This document shows positions 6,273-8,634 of a DNA stretch of 25,507 nucleotides, one piece after another. This DNA is from a virus, in UHGV virus genome UHGV-0069400. One strand, given 5' to 3'. Made by a program: the position numbers and the translations under genes. The notes beneath the pieces were generated by a model. That model was not told where the DNA came from and did no database searches. It saw only the letters and a program-made list of their open reading frames with translations. How positions within the stretch are numbered: the stretch's first letter is position 1; every line of letters starts with the position of its first letter.

Positions 6273-7636
6273 TGTCTGCATCCCCTCTTGAATCCATGCC
6301 AAATTCCCTTAGTGCAGAACAAGCTGTACTTGGTGGCTTAATGCTTGATAACTGCCGCTGGGATGAAGTGGCAGATCGTATAGTTGCTGATGATTTTTAT
6401 ACCAATGCTCATCGTGAAATTTTCAGTGAGATGGAGAGGTTATTAAGTCATGGCAAACCGATTGATTTGATAACACTTGCTGAAGCACTTGAACAGAACG
6501 GTAAATTAGAACGCGCCGGTGGTTTTGCGTACCTTGCGGAGATGTCAAAGAACACGCCCAGCGCGGCAAATATTTGTGCTTATGCGGATATCGTTCGTGA
6601 ACGCGCGGTTGTTCGTGAAATGATTTCCGTCGCAAATGAAATAGCTGAAGCTGGATATGCGCAGGATGGCCGGGGCAGCAATGAAGTGCTGGATATGGCT
6701 GAACGCCGCGTTTTTGAAATAGCTGAAAAACGACAAAAGAGCGGTAGTGGTCCAAAAGATATCGCCAGCATTCTCGATGCAACGGTATCTCGCATAGAAG
6801 AGTTGTTTCAGCGACCGCATGATGGTGTAACGGGACTTGATACCGGATTTACCGATCTCAATAAGAAGACGGCAGGGCTTCAGTCGTCCGATCTCATCAT
6901 TGTCGCCGCCCGCCCATCTATGGGGAAGACCACGTTTGCGATGAATCTCGTCGAAAATGCCGCAGTTCGTAACGATAAGCCCGTATTGGTTTTTAGCCTT
7001 GAGATGCCGAGCCACCAGCTGATGATGCGCTCACTGGCTTCTCTTGCACGCGTTGATCAGACTCGTATTCGAACAGGGCAACTTAACGACGAGGATTGGG
7101 CGCGGGTTTCTGGCGCAATGGGTATTCTGTTGGACAAGCAGAATATTTTTATTGATGACTCAAGCGCCCTGACGCCGACAGAGCTACGTTCCCGCGCTCG
7201 TCGTGTTTATAAAGAAAATGGTGGTTTGAGCATGATTATGATCGACTACTTGCAACTTATGCGCGTCCCGGAGCTGCAAGATAACCGAACGCTGGAAATT
7301 GCCGAGATTTCTCGCTCTCTAAAGGCGTTGGCGAAGGAATTACAAGTACCGGTGGTGGCATTGTCACAACTTAATCGATCGCTTGAACAGCGTGCGGACA
7401 AACGACCGGTAAATTCAGATTTACGTGAATCAGGAGCAATTGAGCAGGACGCAGACCTGATCATGTTTCTGTATCGCGACGAAGTTTATCACCCGGATAG
7501 CGAAATGAAGGGCATTGCCGAGGTAATTATCGGAAAGCAACGAAATGGCCCAATTGGCACGGTGAGATTGGCTTTTAACGGCCAATACTCACGGTTTGAT
7601 AACTATGCTGGTGCTGACTGGCAAGAGGATTATTAA
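6272..7636 (+). CDS. ban: Replicative DNA helicase, DnaB family (P1 Ban-like)
   Basis: About 454 codons. DnaB-like N-terminal domain and RecA-like C-terminal domain with Walker A ARPSMGKTTFA and Walker B LIMIDYLQLM. GGAG 6 nt upstream of ATG 6272; the ORF track begins at an in-frame GTG at 6266. Confidence 0.85.
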   Translation: MSASPLESMPNSLSAEQAVLGGLMLDNCRWDEVADRIVADDFYTNAHREIFSEMERLLSHGKPIDLITLAEALEQNGKLERAGGFAYLAEMSKNTPSAANICAYADIVRERAVVREMISVANEIAEAGYAQDGRGSNEVLDMAERRVFEIAEKRQKSGSGPKDIASILDATVSRIEELFQRPHDGVTGLDTGFTDLNKKTAGLQSSDLIIVAARPSMGKTTFAMNLVENAAVRNDKPVLVFSLEMPSHQLMMRSLASLARVDQTRIRTGQLNDEDWARVSGAMGILLDKQNIFIDDSSALTPTELRSRARRVYKENGGLSMIMIDYLQLMRVPELQDNRTLEIAEISRSLKALAKELQVPVVALSQLNRSLEQRADKRPVNSDLRESGAIEQDADLIMFLYRDEVYHPDSEMKGIAEVIIGKQRNGPIGTVRLAFNGQYSRFDNYAGADWQEDY

Positions 7637-8634
7637 TGCAATGGAATGAGGAAAAGCCGATGAACATCCTGATCATTGGGCGAAAATTTGAAGCTATCAG
7701 TGATGTGAAAACATATACGGAAATGTGGGCTTATAACCTGGCCTGCGCCTTTAGTGAGGCAGGGGTAACATTGCAATACCATCGTCCATATTCCCCTGGC
7801 GTCGAAAGCCCGGAGGATTATGTTGAAGCTGTGTTGACTGCTGCGACCGCATGTTCTGCGAAGGCCATTTTGGCACCAGGATTGAGGTATTTTACTACGG
7901 TACCCAGGGAAATAGGCATGCAACTGTGTCGCCGATTCTCTGGATGGGTAGCCCAGGTATATGACGGTTCTATGCTGGATTCGGCACCAGTCGATATTAC
8001 TTTTACTGTCCGCGATGATACCTGGCGGTACCTGGATAATCCCGGCAGGTTAGAGCGTCATAATCGTTTTAACAAACATGTTGGATGGGCAGCGAATCAG
8101 GAGCTGTTCCATCTGGAAACCAAAACAGACGATATTCTGCGTATTTTTGTAGACCACGCTGCATTTGATGTTAGTGGTTTTGATCACTCCTTAAGTATCC
8201 TTATGAACCTTCAGCGTCTGACCGTTCCGTATGAGGCCAGAACGTTGACTGATGACGGATTGGTTACCATTGATCCGGGGAATATTTCGGTAACTCCATA
8301 CAGGCGGACGCCGGTGCCAGCAACCGAATTTGCAGCTGAATTGCGTAAGAGTGACGTTTTTATCGTTACGCATCCCGAAAGCCTTGGATTAACTGTTCTT
8401 GAGGCGGCAATGTGTGGAGCGTTGATATTAACTCCGCCCGATTGCCTTCCGCCGGATCGCCTGGAGTTGGTGAACCATATGGTTATCAAGTCGCGGATTG
8501 ATTGGGATGAGGTTATTGCTCGCGTTGATCGCGTGAAAAATGCTGAAAAGGTCCAGTGTCACACCTGGTCGGCAATTGCGGAAAAGATGCTTGAGACGTT
8601 TATCACGCAGAAACCGTCGCGCGGTAACGGATAA
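7636..8634 (+). CDS. Hypothetical protein with GT-B glycosyltransferase-like C-terminal motif
   Basis: 332 codons. ATG overlaps the helicase stop (TAATG). C-terminal FIVTHPESLGLTVLEAAMCGALILTP resembles the EX7E motif of GT1/GT4 glycosyltransferases. Confidence 0.4.
   Translation: MQWNEEKPMNILIIGRKFEAISDVKTYTEMWAYNLACAFSEAGVTLQYHRPYSPGVESPEDYVEAVLTAATACSAKAILAPGLRYFTTVPREIGMQLCRRFSGWVAQVYDGSMLDSAPVDITFTVRDDTWRYLDNPGRLERHNRFNKHVGWAANQELFHLETKTDDILRIFVDHAAFDVSGFDHSLSILMNLQRLTVPYEARTLTDDGLVTIDPGNISVTPYRRTPVPATEFAAELRKSDVFIVTHPESLGLTVLEAAMCGALILTPPDCLPPDRLELVNHMVIKSRIDWDEVIARVDRVKNAEKVQCHTWSAIAEKMLETFITQKPSRGNG

Follow-up and report, generated by a model that had tools for sequence, protein, structure and literature searches.

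The ban operon and its last gene

The window, that is, the whole stretch of 25,507 nucleotides that we analysed, comes from a P1-type phage and shares 98–99% DNA identity with P1 and P7. Sequence comparison gave 98.3% DNA identity to P1 for the region of ban, dbn and gene 5. The ban gene (6272–7636, plus strand) encodes a DnaB-like replicative helicase (Pfam DnaB_C, 8.4e-108; DnaB, 4.2e-35; phrog_19); its mechanical ORF begins at GTG 6266, and the P1 annotation begins at the ATG two codons later. It is followed by an ORF of 332 amino acids at 7636–8634 (plus strand), annotated in P1 as dbn ("downstream of ban"), with a GT-B glycosyltransferase-like product. Residues 1–332 match positions 1–332 of the phrog_2518 profile (E = 2e-239), and judged by these matches the ORF is the P1 gene dbn.

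The P1 GenBank record (AAQ14048.1) reads "Dbn, function unknown, possible glycosyltransferase", and RefSeq labels Dbn a GT4-family protein. The label "possible glycosyltransferase" has stood in that GenBank record for two decades. The P7 counterpart is Glt (AAQ07543.1, gene name glt) and that of RCS47 is a "glycosyltransferase family 4 protein". All three are the same gene, with a shared length, ban upstream and the convergent baseplate gene 5 downstream, and they differ from the Dbn of the window by few amino acids. The P7 record contains a TGG-to-TGA nonsense codon at dbn codon 31, because of which P7 dbn was given a later start. Our literature searches found no work on Dbn as a glycosyltransferase or on prophage-borne DUF115.

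The junction between the two genes reads GAT TAT TAA TGC, so that the ban TAA (7634–7636) and the annotated dbn ATG (7636–7638) have one base in common. The overlap TAATG (7634–7638, plus strand) can be read directly and is the same in P1 and P7. A Shine–Dalgarno-like AAGAGGA lies within ban at 7623–7629, and the terminator scan showed no terminator-like site between the genes. By sequence, ban and dbn therefore look like a translationally coupled pair, with a stop/start overlap, a ribosome-binding site that lies within ban and no terminator between them. An earlier note had stated that the dbn ORF begins on the helicase stop codon, and this is borne out. However, a further ATG in the same frame lies at 7660, is preceded by GAGGA at 7648–7652 and opens a conserved core of 324 amino acids (MNILIIG..., 7660–8634, plus strand), and all Dbn homologs start at this point. 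In 13 of the 78 P1-like sequences a small additional ORF (100 amino acids) is inserted between ban and dbn, and homology to the window starts exactly at ATG 7660. Bases 7636–7646 (ATGCAATGGAA) are identical at 10 of 11 positions to the beginning of this inserted ORF (ATGCAACGGAA). The start at 7636 is real in the sequence, yet the enzyme's conserved start is probably another one; conservation favours 7660.

The same note called the co-expression of a sugar transferase with a replication helicase unexpected, and our results do not support a meaning for it. Among the lineages examined the junction is confined to that of P1, and an ORF interrupts it in the 13 sequences above; no Dbn homolog was found after a helicase in any other phage or bacterial lineage examined. 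From these gene neighbourhoods we infer no functional tie between Dbn and the helicase, and the link looks incidental. The observation as posed adds little, since the label was long on record and the adjacency appears to be an accident of operon layout.

A bivalent C1 operator, Oban (formerly Op72), lies at the ban operon promoter (3645–3672), at the place homologous to Obanab of P1. It consists of a perfect ATTGCTCTAATAAATTT match at 3645–3661 (plus strand) and an inverted partner with two mismatches at 3656–3672 (minus strand). Our operator search of the window, which allowed up to three mismatches, gave six matches against 0.14 expected. The operator Oppp (Op83; 14412–14428, minus strand), annotated in P1 and P7 and identical to P1, is absent from this list because it has four mismatches to the consensus. 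It lies ahead of the operon pmgN–pmgO–pmgP–ppp–pmgQ, so that both P1 operons considered here have C1 operators. Between the convergent dbn and baseplate gene 5, a predicted bidirectional terminator hairpin occupies 8655–8681, with an 11-bp GC-rich stem flanked by A and T runs. The fold of 8635–8695 has a minimum free energy of −17.7 kcal/mol (z-score −3.8), which was equalled by 0 of 200 shuffles; the simple terminator scan missed the hairpin because its stem absorbs the T run. The sigma-70 scan for an independent dbn promoter gave one promoter-like site within ban (6999–7026), fewer than in shuffles, and thus lends such a promoter no support; the P1 annotators had predicted two such promoters. 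The gene dbn is the final one of the C1-repressed ban operon and would be made upon prophage induction or infection.

Fold and conserved residues of Dbn

The structure model of Dbn has a pLDDT of 88.6, and the best 50 Foldseek matches are all GT-B-fold proteins, mostly GT4-type enzymes. The model has two Rossmann-like beta/alpha/beta domains with a cleft between them and a C-terminal helix that returns to the N-domain. According to this model, Dbn is a soluble GT-B protein of 324–332 amino acids whose fold is closest to the retaining GT4/GT5 nucleotide-sugar transferases.

The EX7E motif (E-SLGLTVL-E; 8377–8403, plus strand) comprises E248 and E256 in the numbering of the 332-residue form, which are E240 and E248 in that of the 324-residue form. 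It lies 76 residues before the C-terminus, within THPESLGLTVLEAAMCG, which aligns to the GT4 motif. An E-x7-E pattern by itself is trivial by chance. The motif of Dbn, however, aligns with the EX7E of PF00534, PDB 8xsg, MshA, PimA and WaaG. Both glutamates are 99–100% conserved in 123 family members with identity down to 20%. In these members D165, H166 and E248 (324-residue numbering) are invariant, and H238 and E240 are conserved in 99%. The earlier note had taken the product as glycosyltransferase-like from its motif and had proposed structure prediction as a check, with a missing GT-B fold and an isolated motif match counting against it. As the fold is predicted to be GT-B and the motif recurs throughout the family, this reading holds. 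The old label is now backed by a confident fold and by conserved residues of catalytic type.

By sequence, support for placing Dbn in GT4 is weak and borderline. Pfam Glycos_transf_1 (PF00534) matches Dbn with E = 3.3e-5 and 23.9 bits, below the cutoff of 26.4, and over residues 229–315 only; a 98%-identical protein cluster is listed with PF00534.27 in a protein database. The profile of 123 family sequences matched PDB 8xsg (E = 9.8e-5); MshA and PimA aligned to the same residues more weakly. The PDB search with a close-homolog profile showed no significant glycosyltransferase match, the C-terminal half as a single sequence gave nothing significant in the PDB, and NCBIfam returned only a sub-threshold match to a sucrose-phosphate synthase domain. 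The close-homolog profile also matched KtrA/RCK domains (E = 1.3e-4 for a tandem construct, about 1 per domain), which we attribute to the N-domain being Rossmann-like in a general way. When the 123-sequence profile is used, these matches vanish and glycosyltransferases appear.

The invariant pair D165-H166 (8152–8157, plus strand) lies on the first strand of the C-domain and is present in 100% of the 123 members. In a low-confidence hhalign alignment (E = 0.026) the GRKG segment of WaaG falls opposite DVSG of Dbn. In sequence, D165-H166 appears to occupy the place of the GT4 Gly-Arg...Lys-Gly phosphate-binding residues. The canonical Arg/Lys phosphate ligands are thus apparently missing, and the donor chemistry may differ.

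At E ≤ 1e-3 the Dbn family comprises 376 clusters (50% identity) among 1.84 billion representatives, mostly of 300–335 amino acids. Its profile recovers these clusters only, without reaching into the very large GT4 superfamily. From its sequences the family is a small, distinct and uncharacterised GT-B branch with an unusual invariant Asp-His pair. In the viral and metagenome scans, close alignment found almost exclusively P1-like contigs, and the genome-contig scan found one P1-like Escherichia contig and a 209-bp fragment only. Single distant Dbn-like proteins used as queries gave one more locus. Fragmented Dbn-like copies occur in two of the loci (L136, L142) and in Colwellia. Among the P1-like sequences dbn is intact in 77 of 78; over 49 alleles pN/pS is 0.12, and 78 of the 117 segregating sites fall at third codon positions. 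Thus, dbn is under purifying selection.

Neighbours of Dbn homologs and their counterparts in P1

Outside P1, Dbn homologs are found beside Cst-II/WaaZ-like and GT8-like transferases or within Kdo capsule loci. In two loci (L091, L004) and in phage EP_H11 (L146), two MptE-like genes, a Dbn-like gene and a GT8-like gene are packed together. In four bacterial loci (L005, L094, L151, L153) an MptE/WaaZ-like gene stands immediately upstream of the Dbn-like gene, and the surroundings contain Poly_export, KpsMT-like ABC transporter, Capsule_synth and KdsA/KdsC/KpsF-like genes. A partner gene was detected in 13 of the 20 diverse loci; most of the other seven are short, fragmented or fusion forms.

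The profiles of these neighbour families also match three genes of the window itself, all on the plus strand. The homologs of Cst-II/WaaZ/MptE-like (GT42-like) transferases are pmgO (14569–15231; phrog_4603, 4.4e-74; Dbn-neighbour profile, 4.3e-35) and pmgP (15129–15755; phrog_2111, 2.7e-132; local profile, 8.8e-39). The third, pmgQ (16426–17127), is a homolog of GT8-like (DxD) glycosyltransferases (phrog_1962 "glycosyltransferase", 2.5e-128; local profile, 2.6e-66). With phrog_2518, the window therefore carries all four families. They are kept in every P1-like genome examined, these lineages being non-independent samples, and they are contiguous in three other phage lineages, namely the two loci and EP_H11 named above, where all four are adjacent in one genome. 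In 50,697 records, a PmgQ homolog is present in every phage lineage that bears a Dbn homolog. In P1, dbn lies 7 kb and a tail operon away from pmgO, pmgP and pmgQ; since the four are not adjacent there, the cooperation that we propose rests on synteny elsewhere. These neighbourhoods link Dbn to the three pmg genes.

The profile of the PmgO/PmgP-like family matches Cst-II with 5.4e-7 over about 140 positions, and the likeness covers the GPS nucleotide-binding start and a G-x-D segment. The hhalign probability for E. coli WaaZ is 92.7%; overexpression of waaZ is reported to truncate the outer core of LPS. These proteins score below the cutoff of Pfam MptE-like (PF01973). The PmgQ family profile matches the GT8 Skp1 alpha-galactosyltransferase 6mw5 (4.5e-4) and glycogenin (about 1e-2), and D79 and D81 are invariant across the family. 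PmgQ is classed as GT8-like on the E-value of 4.5e-4 and the DxD motif only. In P1 all three genes are labelled "putative morphogenetic", names that appear to be wrong. E. coli K-12 synthesises CMP-Kdo and is not known to make CMP-sialic acid, and Kdo is therefore the likelier sugar of PmgO and PmgP in this host. In phage D3 the partner genes adjoin capsid genes, a position that would suit an acceptor of either kind, protein or lipid.

A possible glycan module, its alternatives and known systems

We consider it probable on balance that Dbn, PmgO, PmgP and PmgQ form a dispersed glycan module of four transferases, in which Dbn represents the GT-B type. As suggested by the neighbourhoods, the recurrent module would consist of two Cst-II/WaaZ-like ulosonic-acid transferases (PmgO and PmgP), Dbn and the GT8-like PmgQ, contiguous in other phages and divided between two C1-controlled operons in P1. 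Because the module has no genes for sugar-nucleotide synthesis, flippase or polymerase, host donors would be used, namely CMP-Kdo and a UDP-hexose in the cytoplasm. The product may be a short oligosaccharide that contains Kdo, and its acceptor would most plausibly be a lipid-linked envelope glycan. An example is the nascent LPS core, and this also serves P1 as its receptor. The earlier note had suggested modification of a cell-surface glycan or receptor, which fits the gene neighbourhoods. Our full proposal is more tentative: upon induction of the two C1-repressed operons, the four enzymes of P1, a module hitherto unrecognised, would build a Kdo-oligosaccharide from host CMP-Kdo and UDP-sugars. 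They would do so either on the nascent core of the LPS, whereby the receptor would be masked, or on proteins of the phage or the host, and the three "morphogenetic" labels would be wrong. The genes dbn, pmgO, pmgP and pmgQ are each individually dispensable (PMC10695390; PMC9024508), and the single deletions have no plating phenotype and give normal plaques (PMC9024508). In-frame deletion mutants of all four have already been made (Gonzales et al. 2022), which makes the idea of Kdo-glycan remodelling directly testable.

The acceptor of the four enzymes could also be exclusively a protein, either of the P1 virion or of the host, by analogy with the capsid and tail glycosylation of mycobacteriophages and the fibril glycosylation of giant viruses. 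We regard this as rather unlikely, but several observations speak for it. The PmgO/PmgP profile also matches the Maf flagellin glycosyltransferase 5mu5 (E = 8e-3), and the PmgO homolog of Pseudomonas phage D3 (orf7) comes immediately after the gene of the major head protein and has a methyltransferase in its vicinity. The L091 cassette adjoins small terminase and head genes, and that of L097 precedes a 1268-amino-acid tail-like protein. By far the best viral structural match of Dbn is a Tupanvirus glycosyltransferase (E = 1.8e-18, TM 0.8), GT8 includes the protein-directed glycogenin and Skp1 GalT, and 8xsg, the top match by sequence in the PDB, is a glucosyltransferase of Actinobacillus. Enzymes of the latter group extend protein-linked glucose. 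However, the promoters annotated for both P1 operons are of the early, C1-controlled type, and neither gene group has an annotated late promoter immediately ahead of it. The bacterial family members lie in capsule export loci and not beside protein targets. The normal plaques of the single deletions also count against a protein acceptor, as does the main text of the P1 virion proteome paper, where glycosylation was no target and no word that starts with "glycos" occurs. A role for Dbn alone, as the product of a moron-type gene that would, for example, add a single hexose to a host glycan such as the LPS core and so block superinfection or the loss of progeny on debris, seems improbable to us. 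The distance of dbn from the other three genes in P1 would agree with it, as would relatives that have no detectable partners or that stand with methyltransferases or a PIG-L-like protein; but it does not account for the retention of all four families in the P1-like genomes, their contiguity in three other phage lineages or the tight MptE-like/Dbn-like pairing in bacterial loci.

The earlier note also raised DNA modification, and if Dbn glycosylated P1 DNA as it is replicated, its co-expression with the helicase would be explained. The T4 alpha-glucosyltransferase (1y6f) and the HY126 glycosyltransferase (9ir0/9iqz) are, like Dbn, phage-encoded GT-B proteins expressed with replication genes, and dbn shares its operon with ban, downstream of dmt. 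HY126 DNA carries arabinosylated 5-hydroxycytosine (PMC13326640). Yet such phage enzymes rank below many GT4 enzymes in their likeness to Dbn, which shows no specific affinity for them. P1 DNA is not known to carry any modification but methylation. DNA glycosylation requires a hydroxylated or hydroxymethylated base, the synthesis of which is encoded by the known systems (PMC13326640); no gene for the synthesis of such pyrimidines is annotated in the P1 regions examined. Phages with an in-frame deletion of dbn are infectious and show normal restriction by the type I systems EcoA, EcoB and EcoK (PMC9024508 Table S3). As the ban linkage is not conserved and homologs lie near sugar transferases and in polysaccharide loci such as those for capsules, DNA glycosylation by Dbn is unlikely, and we give it very little credence. 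We would be just as reluctant to regard Dbn as a functionless remnant that is decaying or has lost its catalytic activity. Its dispensability in two independent screens, the nonsense codon in the P7 record, the fragmented copies elsewhere, the sub-threshold Pfam score and the absence of the canonical Arg/Lys could be read in this way, but the low pN/pS with its excess of third-position sites, the intact P1-like copies and the invariant motif residues in distant members all argue against it.

If the four-transferase proposal is true, a function would be given to a cassette present in several unrelated phages and capsule loci, and a cytoplasmic multi-transferase route would be added to the means by which temperate phages are known to change the glycans of the cell surface or virion. 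We compared Dbn with GT4/GT5 enzymes (sucrose-phosphate synthase 6kih, BshA 6n1x, GlgM 6tvp, PimA 2gej, MshA 3c4q and glycogen synthase). The identity is only 11–15%, and Dbn has 324 amino acids against 340–480. The Gly-rich N-terminal loop of these enzymes is missing in Dbn, and the invariant Asp-His apparently takes the place of their Arg/Lys diphosphate ligands. PmgO and PmgP (180–220 amino acids) are shorter than Cst-II/Cst-I (GT42) of Campylobacter jejuni and the Maf/MptE-like (PF01973) relatives. For the LPS core, the enzymes compared were WaaG and WaaB (GT4), WaaO and WaaJ (GT8) and WaaZ, which has been connected with the third Kdo; by sequence, Dbn is only marginally related to E. coli WaaG and WaaB (hhalign E = 0.003–0.14).

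Identity, fold and family of the dbn product

Positions 6266-8700 were 98-99% identical to P1, P7, SJ46, RCS47 and related records, and by this comparison the window belongs to a phage or phage-plasmid of the P1 type. The P1 record AF234172 names the ORF at 7636-8634 dbn ("downstream of ban") and describes its product as "function unknown, possible glycosyltransferase"; the gene is called glt in P7 and "glycosyltransferase family 4 protein" in RefSeq RCS47. The upstream ORF is ban, a DnaB-like helicase gene (Pfam DnaB_C, 8.4e-108), and the baseplate and tail genes 5, 6, 24 and 7 lie downstream on the opposite strand. 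Because the P1, P7 and RCS47 records already name a glycosyltransferase, the interpretation in the earlier note repeats existing annotation. That call is right, as judged from the predicted fold that now supports it.

The EX7E motif of Dbn is E248-x7-E256 in the 332-aa numbering (nt 8377-8403). The stretch THPESLGLTVLEAAMCG aligned with the Pfam Glycos_transf_1 consensus (E 3.3e-5; 23.9 bits, below the 26.4-bit cutoff). With a 123-sequence family profile, the motif aligned with that of 8xsg, a glycosyltransferase of solved structure (E 9.8e-5); its alignments with MshA and PimA were weak. The GT-B-type motif noticed earlier is thus not isolated. An AlphaFold2 model from 16 sequences (pLDDT 88.6, pTM 0.84) gave 110 Foldseek matches in the PDB at E ≤ 1e-3. 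Each of the best 50 has a GT-B fold, most being retaining enzymes of the GT4 type, and the matches listed included GlgM (7.6e-10), MshA, sucrose-phosphate synthase, tetrahydrobiopterin glucosyltransferase, BshA and PimA. The structure prediction therefore agrees with the GT-B fold that had been proposed. By far the closest viral structural match was a Tupanvirus soda lake glycosyltransferase of the same size (BFVD A0A6N1NPH0; 315 aa, 17% identity, E 1.8e-18, TM 0.78/0.80), which suggests that the family may extend to eukaryotic giant viruses.

From 1.84 billion representatives, a profile search recovered just 376 clusters at E ≤ 1e-3 (127 at E ≤ 1e-30), and most of these were 300-335 aa long and matched end to end. 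By these counts the Dbn family is small and distinct. In the 123 members compared, whose identity went as low as 20%, D165, H166 and E248 (324-aa numbering) were invariant, and H238, E240, G243, G253, W143 and F234 were 96-99% conserved. The Asp-His pair follows the first strand of the C-terminal domain. In a low-confidence hhalign alignment, the G-R-K-G phosphate-binding segment of WaaG stood opposite D-V-S-G in Dbn. Taken with the conserved glutamates, this suggests that the donor-binding glutamates are kept while the canonical basic phosphate ligands seem to be replaced. Two longer forms were also seen: a 519-aa fusion (P0104, L097 1237-2796) of a Dbn-like domain with a Methyltransf_11 domain, and a 552-aa form in jumbo phages (Stenotrophomonas phage RAS14, L147 7590-9248).

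The ban-dbn junction and the maintenance of dbn

The earlier note placed the start of the ORF on the helicase stop codon, and the sequence indeed reads TAATG at 7634-7638, a one-base overlap, with an AAGAGGA site at 7623-7629 ahead of the ATG at 7636. The alignments of all 15 homologs compared (39-98% identity) begin at a second in-frame ATG, at position 7660 (MNILIIG), with a separate GAGGA site ahead of it at 7648-7652. A 100-aa ORF (phrog_12809, function unknown) lies between ban and dbn in 13 of 78 P1-like copies, namely L037 (5702-6004) and 12 other P1-like IMG/VR loci. In these copies the match to the window restarts exactly at the MNILIIG ATG, which is preceded by AAGGAG and overlaps the stop of the small ORF as ATGA. 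Directly after the ban stop, the window has 11 bases, ATGCAATGGAA, of which 10 agree with the beginning of the small ORF, ATGCAACGGAA. This match and the restart of homology at 7660 indicate that the ATG on the helicase stop is the start codon of the small ORF. On this alignment, the small ORF is absent or deleted in the window genome, its ATG being in frame with dbn by chance, and the enzyme proper probably starts at 7660. At 7636-7659 the window seems to retain only the beginning of the small ORF, its ATG and the bases next to it, joined in frame to dbn.

The operator of the P1 ban operon is found at 3645-3672, where a perfect C1 site is paired with an inverted one. Between this operator and ban are tciABC and three tRNA genes (4330-4405, 4408-4483 and 5915-5990). 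The tRNAs are Asn-GTT, Thr-TGT and one with a CAT anticodon, called Met by ARAGORN but tRNA-Ile2 in the P1 annotation. Between dbn and the convergent gene 5 is a GC-rich hairpin of 11 bp at 8655-8681 (8635-8695, −17.7 kcal/mol, z-score −3.8). Operator and hairpin together place dbn at the end of an operon that is repressed by C1 and expressed upon induction. Close packing is common among homologs, with 1-32 nt overlaps in five loci (L003, L004, L091, L092 and L146), each with a different upstream gene. Outside P1-like sequences, no helicase lay upstream in the homolog neighbourhoods examined. Co-expression with a helicase, which the earlier note thought unexpected, is thus not a conserved pairing; from these neighbourhoods, we regard it as an operon accident.

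The gene was intact in 77 of 78 P1-like copies (49 distinct alleles), with pN/pS of 0.12 and 78 of 117 segregating sites at third codon positions. The exception is the P7 record AF503408 (L002, about 2960), where codon 31 is TGA instead of TGG (equivalent to window 7726-7728); glt is consequently annotated from a later start and is shorter. This TGA could reflect a sequencing error or a null allele that occurs in nature. Colwellia-type contigs have the homolog broken up into two or more ORFs (e.g., L005 5713-5904 and 6001-6702), identically in the four contigs shown (L005-L008), and a 233-aa product occurs in 15 contigs. It is also fragmented in two metagenome contigs (L136 and L142). Such frameshifts or pseudogenes point to recurrent loss. 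A genome-wide CRISPRi screen found dbn non-essential (PMC10695390).

Proposed partner genes of dbn

In the lambdoid-type contigs L091 and L004, the Dbn homolog is packed with two MptE-like genes (phrog_4603 and phrog_2111) and a phrog_1962 "glycosyltransferase"; in L091 the cassette is immediately ahead of the small terminase gene. The same four families are contiguous in Escherichia phage EP_H11. Other phage-like contigs carry methyltransferases, a PIG-L-like protein or a Dbn-methyltransferase fusion. The Dbn homologs of bacterial contigs are immediately preceded by an MptE/WaaZ-like gene and lie within capsule-type loci, with Poly_export and a KpsMT-like ABC transporter in L094, and KdsC-, KdsA- and KpsF-like Kdo synthesis genes and a KpsC/S-like Capsule_synth gene in L151; L005 and L153 show the same pairing. 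Among 20 diverse loci, 11 had an MptE-like partner, 7 a phrog_1962 partner and 13 at least one, the 7 loci without a partner being for the most part short, fragmented or fusion forms. Dbn homologs occurred in 22 of 50,697 phage records, belonging to P1-like phages, EP_H11/IME392 and two Stenotrophomonas jumbo phages; a PmgQ homolog was present in every one of these lineages.

Profiles built from these neighbours were run against the window. The MptE-like profile matched pmgO (14569-15231, 4e-35) and pmgP (15129-15755, 9e-39), and the phrog_1962 profile matched pmgQ (16426-17127, 2.6e-66); all three fall into the PHROG families found beside Dbn homologs in other phages. P1 annotates them as "putative morphogenetic function", and P7 as hdmB-D, "head morphogenesis", based on a phage D3 homolog. 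The PmgO/PmgP family profile matched Campylobacter Cst-II sialyltransferase (5.4e-7), Cst-I, LOS sialyltransferase and Maf, and E. coli WaaZ with an hhalign probability of 92.7%. The PmgQ family, with an invariant DxD, matched the GT8 enzymes Skp1 alpha-galactosyltransferase (4.5e-4) and glycogenin (about 1e-2). By profile homology, the three are glycosyltransferase homologs: PmgO and PmgP are Cst-II/WaaZ/MptE-like, and PmgQ is a GT8-like DxD protein. The cluster pmgN-pmgO-pmgP-ppp-pmgQ lies downstream of an annotated C1 operator conserved at 14412-14428, and none of PmgO, PmgP and PmgQ is in the published P1 virion proteome. Their genes are singly dispensable (PMC10695390, PMC9024508). The neighbouring pmgM (13827-14405) carries the "putative morphogenetic" label too. 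Given its matches to VRR-NUC (Pfam E 3e-4) and to PHROG families described as Holliday junction resolvase or endonuclease, it more probably encodes a nuclease than a structural protein.

Dbn, PmgO, PmgP and PmgQ thus resemble a conserved phage glycan cassette whose genes are dispersed here. The observation on the ORF was correct, and the new part is this lead, not the glycosyltransferase label. It can be tested with deletion mutants that already exist.

Donor, acceptor and DNA modification

DNA modification, one role suggested earlier, is unlikely. The Dbn fold has no specific structural affinity to DNA glycosyltransferases, and its helicase linkage is not conserved. No gene for an acceptor-base pathway such as that carried by 5-hydroxycytosine arabinosylation phages (PMC13326640) is annotated in the P1 regions examined, and an in-frame dbn deletion left the phage infectious with normal EcoA/EcoB/EcoK restriction (PMC9024508, Table S3).

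Dbn may instead be a cytoplasmic GT-B transferase whose partners are a GT8-like transferase and two transferases of the ulosonic-acid type. Genes for sugar-nucleotide synthesis, a flippase, a polymerase or membrane components are missing from the four-gene module, which points to host donors and a cytoplasm-facing acceptor. To our knowledge, CMP-Kdo is the sole ulosonic donor supplied by every Gram-negative host. This supply and the bacterial relatives in Kdo capsule loci suggest that the product would be a short Kdo-plus-hexose glycan. The acceptor could be a lipid-linked envelope glycan such as the nascent LPS core, the LPS core being the P1 receptor; this fits the enzyme families but is the weakest step of the mechanism. 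A protein acceptor fits as well, since Maf and glycogenin are among the relatives of the proposed partner proteins, the Tupanvirus glycosyltransferase is a structural neighbour of Dbn, and the PmgO homolog of Pseudomonas phage D3 is placed after the capsid gene. In D3, the gene for the major head protein is directly followed by this homolog (orf7, L149 5597-6055), and the head-completion genes are interrupted by one for a methyltransferase (orf13, 8172-8789). Such an arrangement recalls the capsid-glycosylation cassettes of other phages.
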